Positions 982 to 52,832 are shown, counted from the stretch's first letter. The stretch is DNA of 64,000 nt from an uncultured Candidatus Saccharibacteria bacterium (GCA_964644965.1 CAZXYN010000002.1:67075-131074); one strand, 5' to 3'. Notes: generated by a model from the letters alone, not told the origin. Numbers and translations: made by a program.

Positions 982-1167
982 TTGCCGTATCTGTTATTTT
1001 TCGGTATAATAGCCTAGCATTGGTTTATTTTTTGCCAAAAGACCAAACCAAGTCGCCGAGGCGACTGTTTGGGATTTTGAGAGGAGACGGCTGGATGCGT
1101 TTGCTTCTGTTAGTCAGCAAACTTGTTTTGTGACTAACTTGGCAAACGAATCCTTACACGTCGACGA
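982..1167 (+). promoter_or_regulatory. sigma70-like promoter plus conserved structured leader of the tRNA-Pro unit
   Basis: TTGCCG (982-987), 17 nt, TATAAT (1005-1010). The leader has three parts: ACCAAACCAAG-hairpin-TGTTTGGGATTTTGAGAGGAGA (about 1041-1090), a hairpin with loop GCAAACTTGTTTTG (about 1109-1139), and CACGTCGACGAC abutting the tRNA. The same modules occur upstream of tRNA-His and tRNA-Arg(TCT). Confidence 0.55.
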
Positions 1168-1277: not shown

Positions 1278-1404
1278 ATTGGATATGGTAGAGGGCTCGA
1301 ACCGATAGGCATAAATGTCCAGTGGACATTTATGTTTTCCTTGCTTGGCCGAGAAAATGATTTATCACTTTTCGAGCAACTAGTTCGAGTCCTTTCACCC
1401 CGAC
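1278..1404 (+). repeat. tRNA-flanking element P, ending in a 22-nt copy of the tRNA-Pro T-loop-to-acceptor end
   Basis: 1383-1404 (GTTCGAGTCCTTTCACCCCGAC) is identical to 1221-1242 inside tRNA-Pro. The body holds an inverted T-loop box (GGTTCGAGCC on the minus strand). It also holds the core TCGAACCGATAGGC-hairpin-GTTTTCCTTGCTTGGCCG (1297-1351), which is shared with the element at 23448-23502. Confidence 0.7.
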
Positions 1405-1422
1405 ATAAAATAAGTCAAATAA

Positions 1423-1587: not shown

Positions 1588-1821
1588 TAACACTTGAAGT
1601 ATAGAAAAATTACGGTGTAAATAGTACAATCGTGATAAGCGTTTAACGCCTAGACCTAAACCAAGCAATTGGCATGGTTGATAAATCCATAGAGAAATAA
1701 AAGCTCGTCATGAGTCGCTATTTCTCTATGGTCGGTACTGGAAACGGTATCGGGTAGCTTCGGCTATCGCTCGTGGCGGGCTTTTTATATAGCATCACAA
1801 CTACCTGAAAGGAGATAAGGC

Positions 1822-2376
1822 GTGCAAGCATTAAGGTCAATCGGGAGCACTCTACTGGGTATTGTTATTTTCGTCGGAATTATTATTGCAACAGTTTTGC
1901 TGTTTACTCTAGGTGCTAGATTAGCATTTACTATTCAGCCATTTATCAACTGGCTTGCTGGCGTTCTGTTTATCATAAATATTGTAGCGTTGATTGTGGC
2001 AATAGCGCCAAAAGCAAGGGGCTGGTCTGGTCTGATAATCTACATTTCATCTTATGTATATGGACTAGGAACATGGATTTTCGGTTTAGCGGTTACTCTG
2101 GCGCTCTGGGGCTGGATAGCAGTTATCATTGGTCTTCTTTTGGGTGGTGTCGGTGTTGTACCTATCGGCATGTTGGCCGCAATACTCAACGGAGAGTGGG
2201 GGATATTCTGGACGTTGTTCATAAGTCTAGCTCTGACTTATGGGGCACGTCTAATAGGCACGCTACTAGTGTCCAGTGCTGAAAACCAGCCACATTATGA
2301 TGGAGACGATGTTAGTGATGATGTTATTGACATAGAACCAGGAACACATAAACGAACATGGAAGGACATTGAGTAA
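1822..2376 (+). CDS. multi-pass membrane protein, unknown function; C-terminus ends KRTWKDIE
   Basis: ORF track, 184 aa. GTG start with GGAGA about 9 nt upstream. About 5 hydrophobic helices and an acidic tail. Confidence 0.65.
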   Translation: MQALRSIGSTLLGIVIFVGIIIATVLLFTLGARLAFTIQPFINWLAGVLFIINIVALIVAIAPKARGWSGLIIYISSYVYGLGTWIFGLAVTLALWGWIAVIIGLLLGGVGVVPIGMLAAILNGEWGIFWTLFISLALTYGARLIGTLLVSSAENQPHYDGDDVSDDVIDIEPGTHKRTWKDIE

Positions 2377-2675
2377 TGACCAAAGAAGCTGACGAGAAAC
2401 ATACGCATAACCAAAACAATGCAGAGTCGCCTAAATCAAGCGTTAGTTCTTTTATTCATGTAGCTGGCTTTGCGGGTGGTTTTTTAATTGGTTTTAGGCT
2501 ATTAAATAACTTAATCATTGGGATAGTTCTTGGAATAATTGGAGGAATTATTACCTCCGGAATTTGGGCATTGTTTACTGATAAAGCAGAGAATGGTACG
2601 AAAAAGCATGACGCCGAAAAAGAAACAATAAGCGAGGGTGAAAGTCAAAGACGAACGTGGAAGGACGTTGAATAA
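2376..2675 (+). CDS. small membrane protein, unknown function; C-terminus ends RRTWKDVE
   Basis: ORF track, 99 aa. Its ATG overlaps the upstream stop (TAATG). Glycine-rich TM pair. Confidence 0.6.
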   Translation: MTKEADEKHTHNQNNAESPKSSVSSFIHVAGFAGGFLIGFRLLNNLIIGIVLGIIGGIITSGIWALFTDKAENGTKKHDAEKETISEGESQRRTWKDVE

Positions 2676-2676
2676 T

Positions 2677-3894
2677 ATGGACATGCCACATACAAAGTTA
2701 CGCCAAAAGTATATTGACGAAATCAAGGTTATTGAGGCGAATATCAAAGATATAGCTAGTGGTGAAGCACCGCAAGCATTGTATGAACACTCACAAAATA
2801 AGCTGGATAAGTTAGCAGAGCATTTTCAGTACGATGAACAGCTCGGAACCGCTAGGTACAAGCTCTATGAACTGCAAGCACTCTTGTATTACTTCCAGAA
2901 CAGAGATGATGACGCATTGGCATTTATACTGCAAGCCGTTGAAATCAAAGGCTCCTCATATAAACGGGCCGAACAACTCATAGCACAGATAGATTCAGCT
3001 CCGGCGGAGAGCCATAACTGGGATAATTATCTGGACCACAATGAAACACCGGCAATAACTAGAGCGAATAGTAACCAGAGGGTCGTATTTTTTCATAAAT
3101 CACCATTAACGGTGGCGTTACTATCATTCATTTCACTCGGGTTATATTCCATATATTGGTCGTATAAACACTGGAAGATTATTCAAGACAGCAAGGGCAA
3201 TAAGCCAGCCTATACAGGTTGGTGGCATTGGGGAGGTAAGTTTAGTGAAAACAAAAGAACATACCCAGTTTGGGCTGCTATTTTCCAGTTATTCTCAATC
3301 TACCCCCTCTTTAAATTGATAAAAATTACGGCTCAAGAGAGTGGCTATGAAAAATTTCGTAAGACGAAGTTTACTGCAACTGGCTACATTATTTTATCCG
3401 CTGCCGTCAACGCTACATGGAGAGCAGAACCAAAGACTACCACTGATTTTGTAACATTTATAATATTCATGGTTCTAATGGGAGCATGTATAGCAGTAAT
3501 ACTGGCTATTGTACAACGTGCAGCGAATGCGCAAAACATATCTGTGCTTGGTAAGCGGCACAAGTTCAAGAGTGTGTTTGTGGGTGAAGTAATCTTTACC
3601 ATTATTGCAGTTGGTTTCAGTGTGTTGGCCATTATTGGTACATACAGCTCAGTCGGCACGGTAGGTTACGAAGGTTTAAGTAACGAAGCAATGGGTGCAT
3701 ATCAGAGAATGGAATCGTTGCGAAGCCAGTATAACGCATGTAGTAGCGACTTGGACGCAAGGCGTGATAACGTTAATATTTATAGCGATTATGAGGTTGA
3801 TTCCTTTAATAGCGACCTGGAAGATTGTGAGAACACAAGACTTAGATTGAACAGCACAGTAGATGAATACAACAGACTTGCGGGGTATGAGTAA
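2677..3894 (+). CDS. membrane protein with helical N-terminal domain and DUF4234-like GLYSIYW transmembrane region
   Basis: ORF track 2638..3894. I prefer the internal ATG at 2677 (MDMPHTK...), just after the upstream stop. Motif LSFISLGLYSIYWSYKHWKII plus further TM helices and an acidic C-terminal domain. Confidence 0.6.
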   Translation: MDMPHTKLRQKYIDEIKVIEANIKDIASGEAPQALYEHSQNKLDKLAEHFQYDEQLGTARYKLYELQALLYYFQNRDDDALAFILQAVEIKGSSYKRAEQLIAQIDSAPAESHNWDNYLDHNETPAITRANSNQRVVFFHKSPLTVALLSFISLGLYSIYWSYKHWKIIQDSKGNKPAYTGWWHWGGKFSENKRTYPVWAAIFQLFSIYPLFKLIKITAQESGYEKFRKTKFTATGYIILSAAVNATWRAEPKTTTDFVTFIIFMVLMGACIAVILAIVQRAANAQNISVLGKRHKFKSVFVGEVIFTIIAVGFSVLAIIGTYSSVGTVGYEGLSNEAMGAYQRMESLRSQYNACSSDLDARRDNVNIYSDYEVDSFNSDLEDCENTRLRLNSTVDEYNRLAGYE

Positions 3895-3910: not shown

Positions 3911-4417
3911 ATGGAACGACCAAAACAATTTAGAGACCCACAACTTGAGACTTCAGGAGAGATTATTGGATTCTATCCGAGGGAGTTCTATACATTTGAT
4001 AATTTTGCTGCTTTCCAAGTAGATTACATGGATTTTCGGTGGCCTACTTCTGAGCACGCTTATCATGCAGCGAAGTTTATTGATACTGCTCCTGAAGTTG
4101 TTGAGATGTTAAAAGAAGCACGATCCCCTCACGATGCACTAGCTATTGCGACTGAACACAAACCTAGACGTGCAGAAGATTGGGACGAACGCAAAGTCGC
4201 AGTAATGTATGAGATATGTCGTCTAAAGCTAGTTCAGAATGTTTATGTGCTTCAGAAGCTAGAGTTAAGCGGAGACCTAGATATAGTTGAAGACTCGCCT
4301 AAAGATGATTTTTGGGGTTGGGGACCAAACCGTGATGGCAGAAATGAACTAGGGAAAATCTGGATGCGACTTCGGGAAGAACTTAGGTCTGGCTTAATAG
4401 AGACAAATACGGAATAG
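3911..4417 (+). CDS. NADAR (DUF1768/YbiA-like) family protein
   Basis: ORF track, 168 aa. FYTFDNFAAFQVDYMDFRWPTSEHAYHAAKF and DDFWGWG...G.N.LG..LM match the NADAR signature. Confidence 0.8.
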   Translation: MERPKQFRDPQLETSGEIIGFYPREFYTFDNFAAFQVDYMDFRWPTSEHAYHAAKFIDTAPEVVEMLKEARSPHDALAIATEHKPRRAEDWDERKVAVMYEICRLKLVQNVYVLQKLELSGDLDIVEDSPKDDFWGWGPNRDGRNELGKIWMRLREELRSGLIETNTE

Positions 4418-8082: not shown

Positions 8083-8251
8083 GCAATCAGTATACAATAT
8101 CAATTTGGGGTGAGTAGCATAACAGTGGTCAAGTAGTAGAATTTTGCCCCATAGGGAACAGCAGTTGTCTTTATTATAGCAAAAAGCTTATGTTTTGTCA
8201 ACGTATGAAAAATCTGAAATAAAAATGACCTCCGAAATAGGCCATTCATTG

Positions 8252-8406
8252 TATGGGGCGAGTGATGGGAATCGCCCACATTCTGCGGGCCCGAAACTTC
8301 ACGGTGTGAAACAAGTTTCACCCGGAAGGTTTCCTTGCGAAATGCCACAGGCATTTCTCACCCACGACCTTAGGCGTGGGTTCAAGTTCCATTGACCAGC
8401 CCATAA
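8252..8406 (-). repeat. tRNA-flanking element H, ending in a 23-nt copy of the tRNA-His 3' end
   Basis: 8252-8274 is identical to 8439-8461 (T-loop CGATT through CCA plus 2 nt). 8361-8371 repeats the tRNA-His variable/T-stem segment at 8464-8474. An ~86 nt hairpin-rich insert lies between these two pieces. An inverted, well-formed T-arm/acceptor/CCA-like end (GTGGG-TTCAAGT-TCCAT-TGACCAG-C-CCA) lies on the plus strand at about 8374-8403. Confidence 0.7.
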
Positions 8407-8429
8407 ACAAAAAACGACCCTTTGGGTCA
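8407..8429 (-). terminator. intrinsic terminator after tRNA-His
   Basis: Read on the minus strand: GACCC-AAA-GGGTC followed by TTTTTTG. Confidence 0.65.
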
Positions 8430-8440
8430 TTTCTTATTTA

Positions 8441-8518
8441 TGGGGCGAGTGATGGGAATCGAACCCACGACCTTCGGAACCACAACCCGACGCTCTAACC
8501 AACTGAGCTACACCCGCC
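8441..8518 (-). tRNA. tRNA-His (anticodon GTG) with encoded G-1 and CCA
   Basis: Reverse complement is G-GCGGGTG TA GCTC AGTTGGTTA GAGC G TCGGG TTGTGGT TCCGA AGGTC GTGGG TTCGATT CCCAT CACTCGC C CCA. Coordinates cross-checked against ORF 8434..8718. Confidence 0.9.
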
Positions 8519-8708
8519 TCGTCGGAACGTAATATTGTGGTTCCTGTATTGCCGACAAAACAAGTTTGCTCGGACAATACTAGAAACCTCAATAAGTTTC
8601 CTCCTCTTAAGTTTTCCAAACAGAACAAGTTCTTGGTTTGAAAAACTTGAAAAGCCCAAAAAGGGCAAGAACAGGGGTAATTATATCTGTTTGCGGTTGT
8701 TTTTGCAA
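8519..8708 (-). promoter_or_regulatory. promoter plus conserved structured leader of the tRNA-His unit
   Basis: On the minus strand: TTGCAA (8703-8708), 17 nt, TATAAT (8680-8685), then TACCCCTGTT. Leader modules are CAAACCAAG-hairpin-TGTTTGG..AAGAGGAGG (about 8598-8645), a hairpin with loop GCAAACTTGTTTTG (about 8545-8580), and TCCGACGA abutting the tRNA. Confidence 0.55.
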
Positions 8709-10010: not shown

Positions 10011-10169
10011 ATTGGTACCCCGGGAGGGAATTTGACTCACAAGTCAAAATGCTCTGCATTTTTGCTCGCGAGCCCGGCGCGGCGTGCATCGGGTGCCGAT
10101 GCACAGGCCTTACGCCTGTTCGATTCCCCGCAGGCCAAGCAGTTGGCCTGCTGTCTCTGGGTACCAATT
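10011..10169 (-). repeat. tRNA-flanking element R, ending in a 21-nt copy of the tRNA-Arg(TCT) 3' end
   Basis: 10011-10031 is identical to 10199-10219 (ATTCCCTCCCGGGGTACCA plus 2 nt, read on the minus strand). The GC-richer body has several hairpins (TGCATCG-GGTGC-CGATGCA; ACAGGC-CTTA-GCCTGT; CAGGCCAA-GCAG-TTGGCCTG). It also has an inverted T-loop box TGTTCGATTCC and a plus-strand ...GGGTACCA end. Confidence 0.7.
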
Positions 10170-10193
10170 CAAAAGCCCCACTTTCGTGAGGCT
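10170..10193 (-). terminator. intrinsic terminator after tRNA-Arg(TCT)
   Basis: Read on the minus strand: AGCCTCAC-GAAA-GTGGGGCT followed by TTTTG. Confidence 0.6.
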
Positions 10194-10277: not shown

Positions 10278-10461
10278 GTCGTCGAAGTGTGATGGTGAGA
10301 TAATCCTAGTAGCGACAAAAAATTTGCTCACTACTAGTAATTATCTCACTAAGCCTTCTCCTCTCAAAACCCCAAACAGCAGCCAGCTGCTTGGTTTGGT
10401 GTTTTGTGCAAGAACATTCCTTAACAGGGGTGATTATACCATGTTATAACTGTTATTGTAA
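10278..10461 (-). promoter_or_regulatory. promoter plus conserved structured leader of the tRNA-Arg(TCT) unit
   Basis: On the minus strand: TTACAA (10456-10461), 17 nt, TGGTATAAT (-10 at 10433-10438), then CACCCCTGTT. Leader modules are ACCAAACCAAG-hairpin-TGTTTGGGGTTTTGAGAGGAGA (about 10353-10402), a long hairpin with loop GCAAATTTTTTG (about 10295-10349), and CACTTCGACGAC abutting the tRNA. Confidence 0.55.
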
Positions 10462-10500: not shown

Positions 10501-11802
10501 ATGGAAGAAAATCAGCCAACGCCACCACAATTTGTGAAGCCAGAGACAAAGCAAGTAGAGGTAGAAAAGGTACCTGATGCGCCTCTGCCATCAGAGCCAG
10601 ACACACCGCCTAAGAAACCAAAATCTAAGAAAAAGCTACTAATCATCATTGGAATAGTAGTGGCAGTGCTACTAACTGCAGGCGCACTTTGGTACTTTTT
10701 GATCCGTGACAGCGGGCAGACCGCAGAAACCAGCCAGGAACAACAAGTAGCAGAAGTCACTGAGCGAGAGTACGAAGGGCTACCAGATACCGTTGCCTAT
10801 GCTTACCGCGACATCGACTCTGAGCCGTACAAAATCTACACTCGTCCTGCCGTATCGGGCGAAAGAGCAGAAGCAATGACGCTTCCAGCAGGTGTGTATA
10901 TATCTCACAGTGCTGTACATGGCAACCAAGTAGTGTTCGTGACTGAGCCTGAAGCTGCTACTGATGAAGTACTAACAATCTGGTACAGTGACGATGCTGG
11001 TGCTTCGTACAGAGAGATTTACAAGGATGAAGCGATCACAGCAGAAGACAGTATTGGCACACAAGTAACTAGCATTATATTTTCGACAGACGGTAGTGTA
11101 GTTTTGGCGGGAATATTACCTGCTGACGGTGGCAATCAAGTTACCGAACTATCTTTAGATGGTTTAAATCAACAGAAGGTTATATTTACGACTGACGACA
11201 GGGGTGTTGCCTTAGAAGGTTACGACCGTGCCAACCAAAAGACCCTGTACTTTTCTGGTTGCTACAACTGTGACGGAATTATTCACAAAACCCTGAATCT
11301 TTATGATGAATCATCAGACTCCACAGTTACTGTCTATGATTCGCCAGTCGTTCAGCTAAATGTGGCGGTAAAGGACGATTTTTCCAAAGTACTGATATCA
11401 GAGGGTACAAGTGATGAATCAACAGCAGATGAGCTCGGTGGTGGTTTAGCTGCGCCATATACCATCAAGACCATCGCAGTAGAGGAGGGTGCAGTGGCAG
11501 AGACCTTAACCCAAGTCGATGAGCTGGTGACTGAGGTTGGCTATACCTATGCTGATACAGGTTATTACGTAACTCAGCAGGAGATTATACGACTCAATGA
11601 CGCTACGCCGTCACTTGCTTATGAGACGGCTGGGATTATCATAAACAGCGGTGCGTACTTTGTTGGTGAAGATAGCGTTGTCGTAGCGGTTGGTGAGTTC
11701 TTTGACTTTGCACTAGACTATTTCAAGTCGGGTTCTGAAGCACCGGTAAATGTACTGCAAGGCGACGCCAATACTATAGTTTTCGGTGTTCCGATAAAGT
11801 AG
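10501..11802 (+). CDS. membrane-anchored extracytoplasmic protein, unknown function
   Basis: ORF track, 433 aa. Pro/Lys-rich N-terminus, one TM helix (LLIIIGIVVAVLLTAGALWYFLI), then a large beta-rich ectodomain. Confidence 0.6.
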   Translation: MEENQPTPPQFVKPETKQVEVEKVPDAPLPSEPDTPPKKPKSKKKLLIIIGIVVAVLLTAGALWYFLIRDSGQTAETSQEQQVAEVTEREYEGLPDTVAYAYRDIDSEPYKIYTRPAVSGERAEAMTLPAGVYISHSAVHGNQVVFVTEPEAATDEVLTIWYSDDAGASYREIYKDEAITAEDSIGTQVTSIIFSTDGSVVLAGILPADGGNQVTELSLDGLNQQKVIFTTDDRGVALEGYDRANQKTLYFSGCYNCDGIIHKTLNLYDESSDSTVTVYDSPVVQLNVAVKDDFSKVLISEGTSDESTADELGGGLAAPYTIKTIAVEEGAVAETLTQVDELVTEVGYTYADTGYYVTQQEIIRLNDATPSLAYETAGIIINSGAYFVGEDSVVVAVGEFFDFALDYFKSGSEAPVNVLQGDANTIVFGVPIK

Positions 11803-12299: not shown

Positions 12300-12374
12300 T
12301 GGTGCGGGTGGGGGGAATCGAACCCCCGTCTCAAGTTTGGAAAACTTGCATACTAACCGTTGTACTACACCCGC
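12300..12374 (-). tRNA. tRNA-Gly (anticodon TCC)
   Basis: Reverse complement is GCGGGTG TA GTAC AACGGTTA GTAT G CAAGT TTTCCAA ACTTG AGAC GGGGG TTCGATT CCCCC CACCCGC A CCA. Coordinates cross-checked against ORF 12166..12378. Confidence 0.9.
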
Positions 12375-12500
12375 ATAAAGTCTGAATTGTTAAAGGGTTC
12401 GATTCCGAATCGACTCACCTTCGGCGAGCCCCGAACTTCTGCTTTACAAGCATAGCTTGCAAGTGAAGATTCGTTTCCGACTGCTTTTGAGCAGTTCTCA
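12375..12500 (-). repeat. tRNA-flanking element G (body), between a tRNA-Gly 5' pseudo-copy and the intact tRNA-Gly
   Basis: Read on the minus strand it starts TGAGAAC directly after the pseudo T-stem. It contains GAAGTTCGGGGCTCGCCGAAGG and the palindrome TCGATTC-G-GAATCGA. The T-loop box GGTTCGATTCC is on the plus strand. Confidence 0.6.
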
Positions 12501-12552
12501 CCCCGTCTCAAGTCTCCGAAAACTTGCATACTAACCGTTGTGCTACACCCGC
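12501..12552 (-). pseudogene. tRNA-Gly-like 5' fragment (acceptor to T-stem 5' strand) with an 8-nt anticodon loop
   Basis: Reverse complement is GCGGGTGTAGCACAACGGTTAGTATGCAAGTTTTCGGAGACTTGAGACGGGG. It differs from tRNA-Gly only by one D-stem change (GTAC to GCAC, which breaks a pair) and the loop TTTCCAA to TTTCGGAG. Homology stops exactly at the T-loop. An extended -10 (TGATATAAT, 12577-12582) lies upstream. Confidence 0.65.
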
Positions 12553-12650
12553 GATAAATCCTTGGCAACAGGGGTAATTATATCACTTTAAGGTAATAAG
12601 TAAAACAGCCCCGCTAAAGTTTGCCGAGGCTGTTGCGACCAGTTTTTTAT

Positions 12651-15600
12651 TTAGGCTTCGCGCTTTTTGATGACTACAAAGCTGGTTGCTACGATGAACA
12701 GAGCAAAAGCTGTTGCCAGCAGGACGGGTGTACCGGTATCGGCCAGTGTGCTGGCTCCAAGTACCTGCGGATTGCTTGGATCACAGCCTTCAGTTTCTGG
12801 TGGGTAAGCAACTGAAGTATCAGCAGTTGGGTTGACTTGCATGACAGTGCTCGCAGATGGGCGTAAGTTGCCACCAAAGTCAGATGGATCTTCTACCCAT
12901 TCACCACCTACTAGCTTCCAGCCTGGCCAATCAGGAAGGATTGTGTCAGTGCCTGGCCATAGGGTTTCGGATGAGTAGGTATTAGTCACAGGGTCGTAGT
13001 CAACATCGGCTAGTGCAAATACTTGAGTGTCGACAAGTATGCCAGCTGGATCACCCGCAGCATTACCAGCTTCTGTTAGCCAATCGAGCGTGAACTGCGT
13101 TGGTGTAAACATCGCTTGTGGAACAGACGGGGTGACTGTCCACTGAAGGTAAGGGAAGCTGTTTCGGCAGACTGGCGTTGCAGCATACTCGATTGTCAAC
13201 TGATGATTACCAAAGTTTTTGTTCTCGAAGCTGCGACCAAGTCGACTAACCCATACAAAGTAACAGCCATCGAATACATCTGGATTTGGCTTGGTTTGTA
13301 GCCAGCCAGCTTGCGGCACTTCACACACTTTGTATTTGCCGTAATCCAGTTGACCGAAGTTGTAGGCACCATTCTCATTAGTAGGGGTAGTTGTAGGCTC
13401 GCCGTTAAAACCACAGTCTTTTTCTAGTTCTATGTATCTTTCACTATTTTCGTTTTGGTAGACATAGCTGCTAACCTCTTGCTCATCAAAGGCAGGTTGC
13501 TCTACTCTACATCCCCATTTCTGAATGGTTATTTCCCAGCCAGCAAGTGCTGGCTCTTCTTCGTCCCACTTGCCGTTGGCATTAACATCGCTAAATTTGT
13601 AGCCACTGATGTCACCCTTTTTGTCGTTCACAAATACACATAGGTATTCTTCGCCAATTTCGGCATTGAACTCAGTACCTTGTCCAACAGTTTTCCAGCC
13701 ATACCAGGTCTTTTCTTTACAGTACGAATCGGTGAGTACCCAGTTGTCTGGAAGATTCTTTTCTTCTACTGTTACGTCTCCCGCCTTTATATCAAAGCTT
13801 TCGGTTTGCCAGTTTTTCAGCCCAAAGTATTCTGTGTTGTTGTGTCCTGCTGGATTTAGTTTGAATTGGAACTCGTCGGTTTGGTTTGCGCCGTAGGCAA
13901 CTTTTTTAACAGTTACTTTTGGAGCAATATCTTCGTTCGTGTAGATACATAGAACATCCTGATCAAGGTCAAGATTAACAGTTGCGAACCATCCATTGAA
14001 ATCAGAGACTTTATGAAGGCCACTGTAGCAAGAAATGTCAGTCAGCTTATAGCCAGGTGTAGGGACTTCCCAAAGTTTGTGTTTTCCTGCGTTTACTTCG
14101 ATAGTTTCCCAGTGATCAAGTTTTGTTTGATTAGCAATAAGCTTGTCGTCGAAATCATGCGAATCAAGTGTTCCGCCGTGGTTGTTCTTGACAATCTTCT
14201 TTACGGTAATTGTTGCAGGCTGGTCGTCATTAGTAAGCGTACATTTGTAATCGACGCCTACTTCATCTGCCTTAACATATATAAGCCCAAAGAAGTACTC
14301 GCAGTCGCCAGCCACATTTGTAAGTTTGTAGCCGTTCTGCTGCACTTCCCATACGTAGTAAGTCCCAGTGCTCGCAAGTGGGTGAGGAACCTCAGAAGTG
14401 ACTTCCACAGCACCAAGTGGAAGAGGGATGGATGTTACGTAGAGTGGGAAGTTGTTGTCTTGCAATGTCCCGCCATTATCATTAACAACTACTTTAGTAA
14501 CGGTCAGGGTTGGTGCTGTAGCAGTGTTTACGATCGTACAGACAACATCCTCGTCTAGAGCTAACGTGACTTTGTTACCACTTACCCAGCTAGAGCTGCC
14601 GGTACATTGCCAGTCGCCTGCTGCATACCCTGCTACGCCACCAGTTTCTGACAGGGTGTATTCAAGGTTTGCTTTTGCGTCTGTAGCAGCGAATCCGCCA
14701 ACACCACTTAGCTCAGTGCCGTTTGTAGGTGTTGCTTTAAGTGTCCAAGCAGTTTTGTTTGCTGGTTGACCATATTGATTTACGACTTCTTTTACAAGAG
14801 TTAATGTAGGAGCGATGTCTTGATTCTTAACCTTGCAGGTCACATCCTTATTAGCTTCAAGTTGAACAGGATGTTGTACATCAATCCAAGTGTAGTCAGT
14901 TTTGTAACACTTAATATATTTGAGCTCGTAACCTGGTGTAACCAGTTCACTTACCACATATGTACCGACGGCAAGTTCGTGAGTACCCCAGGTAGAATTT
15001 TGTCCGTTTAGGGTTGGGGTAAATGCTTCATACCCTGCGGTTCCCCCATGGTTATTCTCTACTTCTTTTATGAGTCGCAGCGTACCAGTAGGGAGCTTTT
15101 CGTTCTCGTATTCACAGGTAACATTAGGTTTCTGAGCTGTGAGAGTGATTTCCGTCACGCCGCTTGTTTTATTGATGCTCGTGTTATTGCTTGGATCGCA
15201 ATCAATATCCTTTACTTTCCAGCCTGCAGGTACAAGCTCCGTAACAGTATATTTTGTGTCAAGCGGGACATTAGAGATTGTTTTCTCGCGTGGAGTGTTT
15301 TGCACATCATCATCGTACAAAGTAAATGATTCGCTATTTGGAATTGTGCTTGTGAACGGGAACCCAATGTTGCTTTTTCCGTTATCAACATCTTTTTTTA
15401 TAGTTATACTGCCATATCGTGGAACAGATTTATTTCCAAAATATAGCTCTTCTCTCTGGTTACTGTGCTTAAGTTCAAAGCTCCAACAGCGTGATTCCTC
15501 TGAAGCGCTATTTGGCGATGTATTACCCACGCTGCCGCTCGTATTAGCGTTCGGGTATGTTTGAGTCCAGCCTGCCAACTTCTCTTCACATACGTAGTAG

Positions 15601-15920
15601 TCGTCATAATCGAGATTACTCCAATATACCCAGTCTGAGTCATGTGATGTTCGGTAACTTTGATATACCCATTGGCCTTGTTGGCGTTGATATAGCTTTA
15701 GCATGAACCCAGCTAGATCATCGTTCTCACCGTTGTCTAATTGACCATTACCGTTTGTATCTTCAAATTTCTTGACCTTTATAGATCCATCGTCTTGGGT
15801 TGCGCCTACCGTATCACTCAGTACGAGGGGCACCAGACTACCGGCCAAAACCTGAACCAATATCAATATACCCGCCGATACAAAACCAGTTCGTTTTAAG
15901 ATTTGTGAAACACCATTCAT
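12651..15920 (-). CDS. very large cell-surface repeat protein (SdrD/Cna-B-like and prealbumin-fold repeats) with an LPXTG-like LADTG sorting signal
   Basis: ORF track 12651..15959; I prefer the ATG at 15920 (MNGVSQILK..., GGAGG 7 nt upstream). Signal peptide. DTNGNGQLDNGENDDLAGF and DVNANGKWDEEEPALAGW calcium-type B-repeat motifs. Many ~90 aa repeats. The C-terminus is LADTG, a hydrophobic helix, then KKREA. Confidence 0.8.
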   Translation of the reverse strand: MNGVSQILKRTGFVSAGILILVQVLAGSLVPLVLSDTVGATQDDGSIKVKKFEDTNGNGQLDNGENDDLAGFMLKLYQRQQGQWVYQSYRTSHDSDWVYWSNLDYDDYYVCEEKLAGWTQTYPNANTSGSVGNTSPNSASEESRCWSFELKHSNQREELYFGNKSVPRYGSITIKKDVDNGKSNIGFPFTSTIPNSESFTLYDDDVQNTPREKTISNVPLDTKYTVTELVPAGWKVKDIDCDPSNNTSINKTSGVTEITLTAQKPNVTCEYENEKLPTGTLRLIKEVENNHGGTAGYEAFTPTLNGQNSTWGTHELAVGTYVVSELVTPGYELKYIKCYKTDYTWIDVQHPVQLEANKDVTCKVKNQDIAPTLTLVKEVVNQYGQPANKTAWTLKATPTNGTELSGVGGFAATDAKANLEYTLSETGGVAGYAAGDWQCTGSSSWVSGNKVTLALDEDVVCTIVNTATAPTLTVTKVVVNDNGGTLQDNNFPLYVTSIPLPLGAVEVTSEVPHPLASTGTYYVWEVQQNGYKLTNVAGDCEYFFGLIYVKADEVGVDYKCTLTNDDQPATITVKKIVKNNHGGTLDSHDFDDKLIANQTKLDHWETIEVNAGKHKLWEVPTPGYKLTDISCYSGLHKVSDFNGWFATVNLDLDQDVLCIYTNEDIAPKVTVKKVAYGANQTDEFQFKLNPAGHNNTEYFGLKNWQTESFDIKAGDVTVEEKNLPDNWVLTDSYCKEKTWYGWKTVGQGTEFNAEIGEEYLCVFVNDKKGDISGYKFSDVNANGKWDEEEPALAGWEITIQKWGCRVEQPAFDEQEVSSYVYQNENSERYIELEKDCGFNGEPTTTPTNENGAYNFGQLDYGKYKVCEVPQAGWLQTKPNPDVFDGCYFVWVSRLGRSFENKNFGNHQLTIEYAATPVCRNSFPYLQWTVTPSVPQAMFTPTQFTLDWLTEAGNAAGDPAGILVDTQVFALADVDYDPVTNTYSSETLWPGTDTILPDWPGWKLVGGEWVEDPSDFGGNLRPSASTVMQVNPTADTSVAYPPETEGCDPSNPQVLGASTLADTGTPVLLATAFALFIVATSFVVIKKREA

Positions 15921-16056
15921 AATTGCCTCCTCACATCTATGAATTACTCCACTTTGCAACTAGTGATTATGCACCGATAATACAAATATGCAAGCACGAG
16001 CGGAAATAGCAGTATATTTATCTATAAAATAGAAGCAACAAGTTCTAAATAATTAA

Positions 16057-17722: not shown

Positions 17723-18988
17723 ATGTCTGATGTGAATGACCAAATAAAGAAATTGATAGCTGCCGAAACAAAGCGGCAAGCCGACGGGCTAGAAATGATC
17801 CCGAGCGAGAATCACACTTCGGCCGCGGTATTAAATGCACTTGGCTCAAGACTTAATGATAAATATTCAGAAGGTTACCCAGGTCAGCGATATTACGGTG
17901 GCTGCGAGGTTGTAGACAAAGTAGAAAACCTAGCCCGTGACCTGGCTAAGGATTTATTTGGTGTAGACCACGCTAATGTTCAGGCACACTCGGGCAGTCC
18001 AGCCAACCAGGCGATTTATTTTGCATTAGTTGACCCAGGCGACAAAGTCATGGGGATGTCACTGTATTTTGGTGGTCATATGACACACGGACTTAAGGTG
18101 AACTTTTCTGGAACGTATTATGACTCGGTGCAGTATACTACCGACAAAGACGGTTTTATAGATTACGAAGCCGTCGCAGCGCTGGCAGAAAAACACAAAC
18201 CAAAGCTTATTATGAGCGGCACCACTGCTTACCCGCGTCAGATTGACTGGAAAAAACTTCGTACTATTGCTGATTCGGTCGGTGCTTGGCTGGTATCTGA
18301 TATTTCGCACATTAGTGGGTTGATTGTTGCCGACGAGCATCCAAGCCCGGCTGGTATCGCTGATGTCATCATGACGACTACCCACAAGACACTTCGTGGC
18401 CCTCGTGGTGCGCTAATACTCTGTAATGGCAACCCGTCTAATCCACTCAAGAAACCAGAGCGAACCCCAGACAATCTACCTTCGCTTATTGATCGCGCCA
18501 TTATACCGGGGCTCCAAGGTGGGCCTCACAACCATCAGACGGCTGCAATTGCAGTTGCACTCAGTGAAGCTTCTACTCCAGAATTCAAAGATTACGGTAA
18601 ACAAGTTGTAGCAAACGCTAAGAAGCTCTCAGGTGAGCTTATGAGCAGAGGCTTTGAGCTTGTGACTGGCGGTACTGACAATCACTTGATGGTGGTAGAC
18701 CTAAATAACAAGGGAATTAGCGGCAAAGAAGGCGAGCGGGCACTCGGACTAGCCGGCATCACCGTCAACAAAAACACTGTGCCATTTGATCCGCGAAAAC
18801 CATATGACCCGAGCGGCATCCGGCTCGGTACACCAGCACTAACAACTCGCGGATTAAAAGAATCCGACATGGTGCAGGTTGCCGATTGGATTGACCAAGC
18901 AGTCAAGAATCACAAAAATGAATCAGCGCTAGCAAAACTACACACAGAAATTACGACATTCGCCAAAGACTTCCCGCTGCCTAGCTAG
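17723..18988 (+). CDS. glyA: serine hydroxymethyltransferase
   Basis: ORF track, 421 aa. SENHTS, YPGQRYYGGC, and the PLP-lysine motif TTTHKTLRGPRG. Confidence 0.95.
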   Translation: MSDVNDQIKKLIAAETKRQADGLEMIPSENHTSAAVLNALGSRLNDKYSEGYPGQRYYGGCEVVDKVENLARDLAKDLFGVDHANVQAHSGSPANQAIYFALVDPGDKVMGMSLYFGGHMTHGLKVNFSGTYYDSVQYTTDKDGFIDYEAVAALAEKHKPKLIMSGTTAYPRQIDWKKLRTIADSVGAWLVSDISHISGLIVADEHPSPAGIADVIMTTTHKTLRGPRGALILCNGNPSNPLKKPERTPDNLPSLIDRAIIPGLQGGPHNHQTAAIAVALSEASTPEFKDYGKQVVANAKKLSGELMSRGFELVTGGTDNHLMVVDLNNKGISGKEGERALGLAGITVNKNTVPFDPRKPYDPSGIRLGTPALTTRGLKESDMVQVADWIDQAVKNHKNESALAKLHTEITTFAKDFPLPS

Positions 18989-19659
18989 AGTGGTATGGGT
19001 TCGCCGTAGATGGTTGGCTCGCCCTTGATATGGACATTGTAGACTGCCTTAATATTGGCCGTCATCTCTCTGAGTGATTGCGACAATCTATGATGGCTGA
19101 TGGCTGATGGATAGCCATAGGTTTCTATACCAAACGATCTACACAGGTATATCGCCCGTGGCACGTGTGATTGCTGAGATATGACAATTAACTGATCAAG
19201 CTGGAACACGTTTTTTGCTCGGTCACAGCTTTCATAAGTACTTCTACCGGCGTTGTCTTGCTGTATAGAGGTCAGGGGGATGTCATAGTTGTCTTGCAGG
19301 TAATTCTGCATGACTTGCGGTTCGTTGTAGTTTGTAAATCGGTTATCACCAGATACCAGGATTAGATTTATAGCATCCTCGAAATACAGCTGGGCGGCAG
19401 CGTCCAGGCGTGATTTGACCACATCGGTTGGCTGTTGGTCTACACCAATACCACCACCTAATACTAGCCCAACCCTTGTATCACCTGTCAGTAGATCAGT
19501 TAAGTCCTCGGGCGAGTCATACATGTACTGGCGCGCATTGTTGACAATCAGTGCTGATACAAATGTCGTAATCGCAAAAAGTACGATGACGATAGGAATT
19601 ACATAGACAATATATTTTCCGTTTGTTCGTACGGATTTTTTTAGACTAGTAAGACTCAT
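18985..19659 (-). CDS. SanA/ElyC/YdcF-family (DUF218) membrane protein
   Basis: ORF track, 224 aa. N-terminal TM helix, GLVLGGGI, LILVSGDNRFTNYNEPQVM and SQQSHVPRA motifs. Confidence 0.7.
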   Translation of the reverse strand: MSLTSLKKSVRTNGKYIVYVIPIVIVLFAITTFVSALIVNNARQYMYDSPEDLTDLLTGDTRVGLVLGGGIGVDQQPTDVVKSRLDAAAQLYFEDAINLILVSGDNRFTNYNEPQVMQNYLQDNYDIPLTSIQQDNAGRSTYESCDRAKNVFQLDQLIVISQQSHVPRAIYLCRSFGIETYGYPSAISHHRLSQSLREMTANIKAVYNVHIKGEPTIYGEPIPL

Positions 19660-23385: not shown

Positions 23386-23508
23386 TGGTACACCCGGCAG
23401 GATTCGAGTTATTCTGCGCCTGGCTAAAATGCAAGCATTAGCCGAGGCGGCCAAGCAAGGAAAACTCGGATACCCACTGGGTATCCTCGCCTATCGGTTC
23501 GAATCAAT
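23386..23508 (-). repeat. tRNA-flanking element A2 behind tRNA-Arg(TCG), ending in a non-identical tRNA-like 3' end
   Basis: Read on the minus strand it ends ...CTCGAAT CCTGC CGGGTGT A CCA (23386-23408). 23448-23502 is the reverse-strand equivalent of the tRNA-Pro element core 1297-1351: the 14-nt and 18-nt flanks are identical and the hairpin differs by paired changes on both strands of the stem. Confidence 0.65.
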
Positions 23509-23554
23509 CAAAATAAAAGTGGCGGTATAACGACAAAAGTCATTAGACCGCCAC
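23509..23554 (-). terminator. intrinsic terminator abutting tRNA-Arg(TCG)
   Basis: Read on the minus strand: GTGGCGGT...ACCGCCAC followed by TTTTATTTT. Confidence 0.6.
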
Positions 23555-28282: not shown

Positions 28283-28345
28283 ACCTTAATTTAACCATGA
28301 ATGAAAAAAGACCATAAAATGGTCTTTTTAAGCATAACTAGTATG

Positions 28346-28525
28346 GGAGGGCCAGGAGGGACTCGCCTTGCGACAATTCAAAAATATAATTGTTAACGCA
28401 ACCCTTTGATATGCCATTGGCATATCACGGGCAGGGTGCGGGGAATGCTCCAAGCATTCCCGTTCAAGTCCCTTCCTATCCACGTACCATATAAAAAATG
28501 CCACCACTTGGTGACATTCTTTATA
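28346..28525 (-). repeat. tRNA-flanking element K (includes the proximal terminator), ending in a 20-nt copy of the tRNA-Lys 3' end
   Basis: 28346-28365 is identical to 28527-28546 (CGAGTCCCTCCTGGCCCTCC on the minus strand); one extra C then precedes the final CA. The body has hairpins GATATGCCA/TGGCATATC and GGGAATGCT-CCA-AGCATTCCC, an inverted T-loop box CGTTCAAGTCC, and a plus-strand ...CACGTACCA end. The proximal terminator (28493-28516) pairs with a G-U only when read in tRNA sense. A second terminator lies at about 28300-28330. Confidence 0.7.
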
Positions 28526-52430: not shown

Positions 52431-52832
52431 GGGGCTGTTTAGCTCGACATTTGGACATTTACAAGTTGGTATAAGCAGGCCGGTAGTCTGAACGTTATCC
52501 GGACAAACCTTCTAACTGCAAACGCATTAGATCGCGTACAAGCTATGTTCAATGACGCCTTTGGTATCAAAGAACGTGCTTTCGCAACAGCTGCCTAATT
52601 TTAGTGTAGCGACTGTTAGTTCGACATCAGATAGAACAAATCAGTCTCATATTTTTCTGATTGCTTAAATATTACGACCCGTAATGTTTACTAAGACTTA
52701 TAGGGTTGCAGCGATGGAATTTTTTGTTGATTTCTATCTTTCATAGCTAAAGAAACCAAGCAAATCAAATAAGCCTGTAGAAACCCAGCAAGTAACCGAA
52801 TGGACGCGGCTTCATCGCCGCCAGCTCCACCA
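52431..52832 (+). ncRNA. ssrA: tmRNA (SsrA)
   Basis: 5' GGGGCTG... pairs with 3' CAGCTCC-A-CCA. T-arm GCGGC-TTCATC-GCCGC. The tag reading frame 52518-52598 encodes ANALDRVQAMFNDAFGIKERAFATAA*. Promoter TTGCAT (52368-52373), 17 nt, TACAAT (52391-52396). Coordinates cross-checked against ORF 52800..53519. Confidence 0.85.

Follow-up and report, generated by a model that had tools for sequence, protein, structure and literature searches.

A widespread structured module of Saccharibacteria at the T-loop position of tRNA relics

The window analysed here is a 64,000-nucleotide stretch of DNA from an uncultured Candidatus Saccharibacteria bacterium (GCA_964644965.1 CAZXYN010000002.1:67075-131074), and the window features described below lie on its minus strand unless a plus strand is indicated. 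Its tRNA-His unit begins with a promoter-like site (TTGCAA-17-TATAAT, 8680-8708), followed by the intact tRNA-His(GUG) with encoded CCA (8441-8517) and by a terminator hairpin, GACCCAAAGGGTC, with a U-run (8405-8428, hairpin 8428-8416). This hairpin is the apex of a 46-nt imperfect palindrome that links the 3' part of the tRNA with an antisense segment, TGGGCTGGTCAATGGAACTTGAACCCACG (8375-8403), an antisense copy of a diverged tRNA 3' part in which the complement of the T-arm is retained and that of the acceptor has decayed. The nucleotides CCT separate it from the sense AAGGTCGTGGG (8361-8371, repeat D5), which equals the variable region and T-stem 5' strand of tRNA-His (8464-8474) and pairs with 8375-8380 to form helix alpha. 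Immediately after AAGGTCGTGGG comes TGAGAAATGCC, within an 86-nt insert (8360-8275) that opens with TGAGAA and belongs to a module that we call X (8275-8363; GGG, then UGAGAA, P1, GCAAGG, P3/P2, CGGG and P4). Next stands CGATTCCCATCACTCGCCCCA (8254-8274, repeat D1), which reproduces the final 21 nt of tRNA-His (8441-8461) exactly and comprises the T-loop remainder, T-stem 3' strand, acceptor 3' strand and CCA, and a second terminator-like hairpin with a U-run closes the element (8213-8247, hairpin 8247-8223). The 166 nt between the two tRNA-His 3' repeats hold no ORF. An initial annotation had read this element as a tRNA-His 3' fragment split in its T-loop by an insert of about 86 nt, and the strings that it quoted, here and at the tRNA-Gly locus, all lie where it placed them; the fragment is broken at the junction of T-stem and T-loop.

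At the tRNA-Gly locus, the only promoter-like site (12577-12604) lies upstream of a pseudo 5' part of tRNA-Gly (positions 1-53; 12501-12552, repeat D3) with an 8-nt anticodon loop, UUUCGGAG. Directly after its ...GACGGGG comes TGAGAACTGC (12491-12503), and the X copy spans 12414-12503 (insert 12500-12414). The T-loop remainder TCGATTC then folds back on an antisense T-arm, GGAATCGAACCC, through helices beta and alpha (12395-12413, repeat I25); the stretch 12413-12395 reads TCGATTC-G-GAATCGA-ACCC and is succeeded by a 20-nt spacer and the intact tRNA-Gly(UCC) (12300-12374). By the relatives of its VKOR gene, the window belongs to a Saccharibacterium of the Saccharimonadales. A relative with 71% VKOR identity (locus L001) has the same arrangement, the relic's odd anticodon loop included, and its X copy differs from that of the window by compensated changes in P1 and P2. 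The retention of the UUUCGGAG loop in both species (in L001 upstream of 4233-4322) suggests more than free decay. The neighbor of the Gly unit encodes a 1102-aa protein with SpaA-type prealbumin-fold domains, pilin or adhesin-like (12651-15959).

A cassette of some class accompanies six of the seven tRNA genes in the window. Four further genes, tRNA-Pro, tRNA-Arg(tct), tRNA-Arg(tcg), and tRNA-Lys(ctt), lay outside the view of the initial annotation and have a comparable arrangement with other inserts, each being succeeded by a terminator, a segment resembling the reverse complement of a tRNA 3' part, a structured insert of 85-130 nt, and a copy of the last 21-24 nt of its own tRNA. At Arg(tct), Lys, and Pro the displaced 3' copy is of the same kind as at tRNA-His, starting in the T-loop. 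All four inserts belong to classes other than X. Class A follows tRNA-Pro (1282-1405, plus strand, ending in the tRNA-Pro 3'-end copy) and tRNA-Arg(tcg) (23386-23512); the two have exact 14- and 18-mers in common, TCGAACCGATAGGC and GTTTTCCTTGCTTGGCCG, with compensated hairpins in between, and no more copies were found in the loci examined. Other classes follow tRNA-Arg(tct) (10011-10176, with a final 21 nt that match the tRNA 3' end exactly; repeats D10 and I2) and tRNA-Lys(ctt) (28344-28489, ending in a tRNA 3'-end copy). We found no such unit at tRNA-Glu or at the tmRNA of the window, the latter located at 52431-52832 on the plus strand (67.8 bits) with no cassette after it. About 250 nt downstream of the tRNA-Pro cassette lies a LOOT RNA (RF03000, 75.7 bits; 1653-1768, plus strand). 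A third module class, E, with the core GCCACGCACAGGAG-loop-CTCCGAGCATGG between antisense T-arm and tRNA 3' copy, was seen after tRNA-Asp, Met, Trp, and Arg in other loci (L006, after tRNA-Asp 11618-11694; L023, 4440-4582; L029; L068, ~620-800; L092). At least three unrelated module classes besides X occupy the same place. Three of a set of 134-aa ORFs, four in all, lie immediately after tRNA loci; the set was considered as a linked gene family and proved mutually unrelated.

Between promoter and tRNA, several of these genes also carry a structured 5' leader of ∼150 nt that is conserved among tRNA-Pro (1000-1167, plus strand), tRNA-Arg(tct) (10278-10445), tRNA-His (8518-8700), and the tRNA-Gly of L001 (4331-4480, minus strand). 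Its elements run in the order CCAAACCAAG, hairpin, CTGTTTGGG, ATTTTGAGAGGAGAAGGC, long hairpin with apical GCAAACTTGTTTTG, and TTACACTTCGACGA. The leader has no match in Rfam, and its apical hairpin, GCAAACUUGUUUUG, resembles P2 of X. Exact AAACTTGTTT sites are linked to tRNA genes in three of four cases in the window and three of five in relatives.

The initial annotation had taken a string, GAAGTT(T)CGGG.C.CGC, and a junction motif as signs that the His and Gly inserts are related. The string is indeed common to both inserts, but neither it nor the junction motif is rare by itself, with 37 and 46 of 100 shuffles giving as many loose matches. It is the full-length comparison that carries weight: in pairwise alignment, the His and Gly inserts beat dinucleotide shuffles (2/1000 in local and 7/1000 in semi-global mode). 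The two copies are ∼60% identical with all helices kept, and they are homologous members of one family, X. The predicted folds of all the inserts of the window, those of the other classes included, lie far below those of shuffled controls, the long Gly leader excepted.

A search pattern was built from four copies, namely, the two of the window, that of L001, and that of another relative (L003), where 53 nt perfectly matching the 5' part of tRNA-Arg(tct) precede the insert. It gave 95 stretches in the loci examined, 89 of them in metagenome contigs; 27 are chance matches in coding DNA, with odd lengths and without P1, and 68 are X-like, ∼64 of them beyond the starting copies. An intact tRNA of the same identity adjoins X in 46 of the 68 (called by ARAGORN on the same strand, ≤100 nt upstream or ≤140 nt downstream). 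In 33 copies X lies 64-83 nt downstream of the tRNA, as at tRNA-His, and in 13 it lies 39-58 nt upstream, as at tRNA-Gly; the remaining copies are in arrays or mostly at contig ends or behind another cassette. X stands beside at least 15 isoacceptors, including Gln(ttg, ctg), Gly(gcc, tcc), Val, Lys(ttt, ctt), Glu(ctc, ttc), Arg(tct, tcg, ccg), Tyr, Ala, His, and Met. Several of these loci share neighbor genes with the window at 51-70% amino acid identity and therefore come from related Saccharibacteria. X is thus a widespread family of ∼89-nt structured modules of Saccharibacteria, located at the T-loop position of tRNA relics.

A covariance model (R1) scores the window copies at 106.6 (His) and 71.6 bits (Gly), both being in its training set, and finds no other match within the window. 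It also detects untrained copies, among them one at 65 bits (L023) and ∼12 that the pattern had missed. No cassette matched a family of Rfam 15, at gathering score, at E ≤ 10 for the region, or at E ≤ 1 for the whole window; the families covered include hammerhead, twister, hatchet, pistol, HDV-like, tmRNA, and YrlA. BLAST against phage and plasmid collections returned no X match, and two pattern scans of IMG/VR gave only chance matches in coding DNA, with 16 bits in the covariance model and no nearby tRNA. Full-text literature searches found the X family nowhere described.

The consensus of 56 distinct copies (alignment A2) begins at a boundary between RGG and UGARAA, with the UGA followed by P1 (8 bp with an NGU triloop), GCAAGG, P3 enclosing P2, CGGG, and P4. 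P2 has the apical sequence AAACUUGUUU, and P4 is a hairpin with a GAA loop, CYYGCN-GAA-NGURRG. Some of the invariant positions are imposed by the search pattern itself, while GCAAG, GUGA, CGGG, and the P4 frame hold in the 12 copies recovered by the covariance model alone. X contains 33 base pairs, and both sides have changed in 23 of them. Paired cells amount to 95.7%, compared to 30-44% when the partners are slid by 1-3 columns, and double-change cells number 318, against 86 ± 9 in shuffles, with none of 500 shuffles reaching any of the measures. X carries compensatory base-pair changes beyond those of the controls, as would be expected of a structured functional RNA. G·U pairs outnumber A·C pairs by 38 to 20, which favors the tRNA-sense strand. 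Hammerhead, hairpin, and HDV-like cores were compared by eye and do not fit, and the GAGAA is base paired, as shown by covariation of columns 7 and 28.

The position of X relative to the tRNA is constant. Its left flank is always the T-stem 5' strand ending in GGG, and its right flank is the T-loop remainder, (T)CGAATCC, with 1-2 nt (G53/T54) absent at the junction; most junctions are shorter by one G and have no T54 on their right side. A single core dinucleotide of a serine recombinase (GT, TT, or CG) was considered for these junctions and fits those at His, Lys, and Glu but not most others. A continuous antisense T-arm lies near X, its reverse complement reading as an uninterrupted T-arm (e.g., GGTCGGGAATTCGATTCC), and pairs with both flanks, the left one in helix alpha and the right one in helix beta, leaving 1-4 unpaired nucleotides at the junction. 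We also considered the antisense T-arm as a −35 box, for which the match is weak and inconsistent. When X was removed in silico, with six junction variants for each copy, ARAGORN called a tRNA across the junction in 0 of 66 cases, and X is not an intron.

Two layouts of this junction occur. In the His type, alpha is closed by a loop, beta opens into the acceptor and CCA tail, and the unit comes after the tRNA terminator. The Gly type has beta closed (TCGATTC-G-GAATCGA) and alpha open, with the unit in the 5' leader behind the pseudo 5' part. One being closed at alpha and the other at beta, the two layouts are circular permutations of one junction. Among the tRNA-derived parts, constraint is local. 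A profile computed with strict gap penalties shows the antisense segment to be 67-75% complementary to the T-arm of the tRNA, against 42% for the acceptor. The sense tail keeps 89-94% identity to the tRNA in the T-loop and T-stem and 74% in the acceptor, and it is sometimes lost or carries hairpin insertions. Gly-type 5' relics decay starting from the far end. At one locus (L064), it is the relic, and not the neighboring tRNA, that the antisense arm matches.

A T-loop-specific mechanism, as opposed to coincidence, had been proposed from the two loci of the window. The presence of X at this position beside so many isoacceptors bears out that the position is not coincidental, while the evidence does not establish a simple insertion into a T-loop: the junction substitutes 1-2 nt and does not split the loop cleanly, none of 66 cases placed X in a complete tRNA, an antisense T-arm copy always accompanies it, and there are two circularly permuted layouts. 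Nor is the insert a mere scar of recombination, being a conserved structured unit under selection.

Cassettes come and go between relatives. The tRNA-Glu(ttc) gene is empty in the window and has X at two orthologous loci (L058 and L106); tRNA-Lys(ctt) has another class in the window and X in L052, as two tandem copies, and in L114; and tRNA-Arg(tct), with a third class in the window, bears X of the Gly type in L003 and of the His type in L046 and L127. Arrays of two to four X copies occur, and at two loci (L113 and L120) X lies on both sides of one tRNA-Gln. The lineage of the window is enriched in cassettes, which stand at six of its seven tRNA genes, compared to ∼5 of 45 in relatives. At tRNA-Gln(ctg) loci (L051, L056/L071, L059, and L060), the 5' leader (e.g., CACTTCCTGGC) is complementary to the CCA and trailer (GCCAGGAAGTG), and an extra copy from the T-loop to the 3' end lies 11 nt after the tRNA; the intact tRNA thus appears nested in an older interrupted copy.

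Large serine recombinase genes are found at some of the loci of relatives. In L108, such a gene is flanked by two identical 222-nt units in inverted orientation (region 1635-3602), each consisting of X with flanks of 88 and 45 nt and each beginning right after a ...CCA, the two ...CCA ends being different. The right unit is preceded by a promoter-like TTGTTATAAAAT and a 30-nt mini tRNA-like piece, GGGTTCGAGCGGAGTTGTATAGCTCCACCA. A second large serine recombinase gene converges on an X-bearing tRNA-Gln locus (L056/L071; L071, 312-1847), and five relatives have homologues in the same convergent orientation to tRNA-Ser, Trp, and Pro genes, with pieces of antisense T-arm at their 3' ends; the genes convergent on tRNA-Ser, Trp, and Gln include, besides that of L071, those at L004 (~17871-19151), L009 (~17840-19117), L021 (~14345-15625), and L024 (15295-16791). 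In L071 and L024 the recombinase ORF runs antisense into the tRNA, giving a C terminus ...GFEPP.... No homologue of the large serine recombinase was found in the window, and the search for a target-site duplication of X units gave no clean one.

We tentatively explain these observations by accessory cassettes at tRNA loci that would have arisen from recombination inside tRNA genes, with the X core selected as a folded RNA cotranscribed with the tRNA, a reading to which we assign a probability of roughly 0.45. In its favor are the constant position of X beside many isoacceptors, the covariation, the junction nucleotides kept in copies outside the pattern, the compensated changes between the Gly copies of the window and L001, the uneven decay of the flanks, the G·U excess, the placement of promoters and terminators, the turnover and arrays of cassettes, the duplicated L108 unit, and the resemblance of P2 to the leader hairpin. 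X between the T-stem 5' strand and the T-loop remainder, together with the antisense T-arm paired through alpha and beta, would form one closed junction. A single crossover between an intact tRNA gene and an X-interrupted copy would then duplicate the 3' part of the tRNA if it fell 3' of X, or the 5' part if it fell 5' of X, and the outer tRNA-derived parts would decay after the crossover. Recombination within the tRNA gene would be the most economical origin of the cassettes, although the junctions show no clean common crossover core, which counts against a crossover.

X would be transcribed in the tRNA sense along with the tRNA and act as a folded RNA, forming a domain of its own within the leader or trailer of the pre-tRNA and keeping the antisense T-arm off the real tRNA, and its fold probably directs the removal of the cassette from the tRNA precursor. 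With the sole promoter-like site of the Gly unit placed ahead of the relic, tRNA-Gly most likely derives from a precursor with X in its leader. For the His-type unit we found no separate promoter. The His element is closed by a terminator distinct from that of the tRNA, which suggests read-through transcription, and the dependence of His-type transcription on read-through of the tRNA terminator counts against the folded-RNA reading. Orthologous tRNAs can do without the cassettes, so a role for the tRNA itself, if there is one, would not be essential, and the L064 antisense arm, matching the relic and not its neighbor, argues against direct regulation of that tRNA.

Selection that conserves structure could also act on single-stranded DNA recognized by a recombinase or transposase. 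X might then be a miniature mobile DNA element of the MITE, REPIN, or IS200/IS605 kind that targets T-arms, with its hairpins recognized as folded single-stranded DNA, the structure selected in DNA, and any RNA incidental. The presence or absence of cassettes at orthologous tRNAs, the swaps of module class, the arrays, the enrichment in the lineage of the window, and the identical L108 units at two ...CCA ends around a recombinase gene are all consistent with such an element, as are the subterminal hairpins P1 and P4 at the ends of X and the constant left flank ending in GGG. We nevertheless consider it rather unlikely, as the copies within one genome are old and divergent (the ∼60% identity with helices kept is unlike recent MITE bursts), the internal junction nucleotides and P2/P3 are as conserved as the ends, neither a transposase nor a large serine recombinase is present in the window, and X never sits in a complete target or shows a clean target-site duplication. 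X could instead be passive, the remnant arm of a lost island whose integrase crossed over in the T-loop, as tRNA-targeting integrases do, leaving fragments of the tRNA displaced. An intact tRNA with a direct copy of its 3' end starting inside the T-loop is the signature by which such islands are mapped (Islander, PMC4383910), and both the tandem accretions and the large serine recombinase genes convergent to tRNAs, with antisense T-arm pieces at their 3' ends (L004, L009, L021, L024, and L056/L071), would fit. An "island" of 166 nt without genes, strong compensatory evolution, invariant junction bases, conservation of X between species at the same locus, its absence from the phage, plasmid, and IMG/VR collections, and junctions without a common crossover core make an attachment-site scar improbable.

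The two T-arm-derived arms invite a different kind of reading, a new catalytic or guide-type RNA that would recognize the antisense T-arm via two flanking helices; it could be a self-cleaving or processing ribozyme or an RNA steering recombination to tRNA T-loops. Such an RNA would explain the tailoring of X to each tRNA and its tolerance of circular permutation, and we hold it to be doubtful, if a little less so than its ribozyme form taken alone. In the latter, a small ribozyme would sever the cassette from the tRNA precursor, with the cut in the paired antisense strand or at one X border. Two binding arms enclose a conserved core and pair with one continuous strand, leaving 1-4 nucleotides of the junction unpaired; this architecture, the invariance of the junction nucleotides, and the circular permutation, which hammerhead and twister types also tolerate, all point this way, and theta ribozymes that process tRNA ends offer a precedent (PMC10879173). 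The lack of a match to any Rfam ribozyme model, even at E ≤ 10, and the three or more other unrelated module classes in the same place, which are unlikely all to be ribozymes, leave it an improbable explanation. X might alternatively serve an RNA-guided recombinase or nuclease as a guide-RNA scaffold resembling bridge RNA or omega RNA, in which case its T-arm arms or 3' tail would designate the cognate tRNA gene as target. Arms identical to the tRNA gene around a gap of 1-2 nt, the His-type 3' tail of 21-24 nt identical to the tRNA gene directly after the scaffold, and the recombinase gene between two X units in L108 speak for this, but Gly-type copies have no matching tail and yet are conserved, tails often decay, and the window contains no candidate effector. 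Large serine recombinases are also not known to use RNA, and we consider a guide scaffold very unlikely. T-loop introns and split or permuted tRNA genes are known in archaea and a red alga, and the fixed T-loop position of the insert recalls them. For X to be a T-loop intron or split-tRNA half that is removed to give a functional tRNA is hardly credible, with no tRNA restored in any of the 66 removals, a His relic without positions 1-43, a Gly relic without the 3' part, relics that decay, and an intact gene of the same identity adjoining 46 of the 68 copies.

A tRNA gene with a displaced fragment is a kind of object already known. What is new in X is that a conserved module keeps to one T-loop position, that it has an antisense clamp, and that its layouts are permuted. 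REPIN/RAYT, Rickettsia palindromic elements, and Correia elements are short, hairpin-rich, and noncoding and are sometimes tolerated inside RNA genes. Like X, they are intergenic units that come and go, whereas X is ancient and divergent, has compensated helices, and is tied to one structural position of tRNA-derived sequence. Archaeal T-loop introns, split tRNAs, and the permuted tRNA genes of Cyanidioschyzon resemble X in being interrupted at a fixed T-loop position, but the host of X is bacterial, a complete interrupted tRNA was obtained in 0 of 66 cases, and no bulge-helix-bulge logic is apparent. The T-loop-crossover islands mapped by Islander (PMC4383910) share with X the intact tRNA, the 3' direct repeat from inside the T-loop, and tandem accretion. 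The X unit differs from these islands in being only ∼170-190 nt long and geneless and in that a conserved structured module interrupts its fragment. Its antisense T-arm and the existence of a mirror layout with the 5' part duplicated are further differences. Theta ribozymes, minimal HDV-like ribozymes found by phage tRNAs (PMC10879173), are likewise small structured RNAs tied to tRNA genes, with a plausible action on the ends of the tRNA precursor. X does not match them in sequence or structure (Rfam), and it lies 64-83 nt past the tRNA end or in the leader instead of abutting the 3' end. Orphan RNAs of Saccharibacteria in Rfam, such as LOOT (RF03000), are also conserved, covarying, and noncoding and come from the same lineage; unlike LOOT, X is outside Rfam 15, embedded in tRNA relics, and found in circularly permuted contexts.

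Saccharibacteria have tiny genomes with little noncoding DNA. In the window, most tRNA genes bear a structured noncoding cassette, and X is conserved across many lineages with textbook covariation. A preprint on the transcriptome of strain TM7x notes that no small RNAs have been validated in TM7x (10.1101/2022.03.25.485537). If X acts on tRNA precursors, the Candidate Phyla Radiation would possess a so far unrecognized layer of tRNA maturation or quality control. If it is mobile, it would be an element that targets one structural position of tRNA genes and survives by sparing the sole functional copy. Under either reading, X provides a new RNA family to model and a marker of recombination history at tRNA loci.
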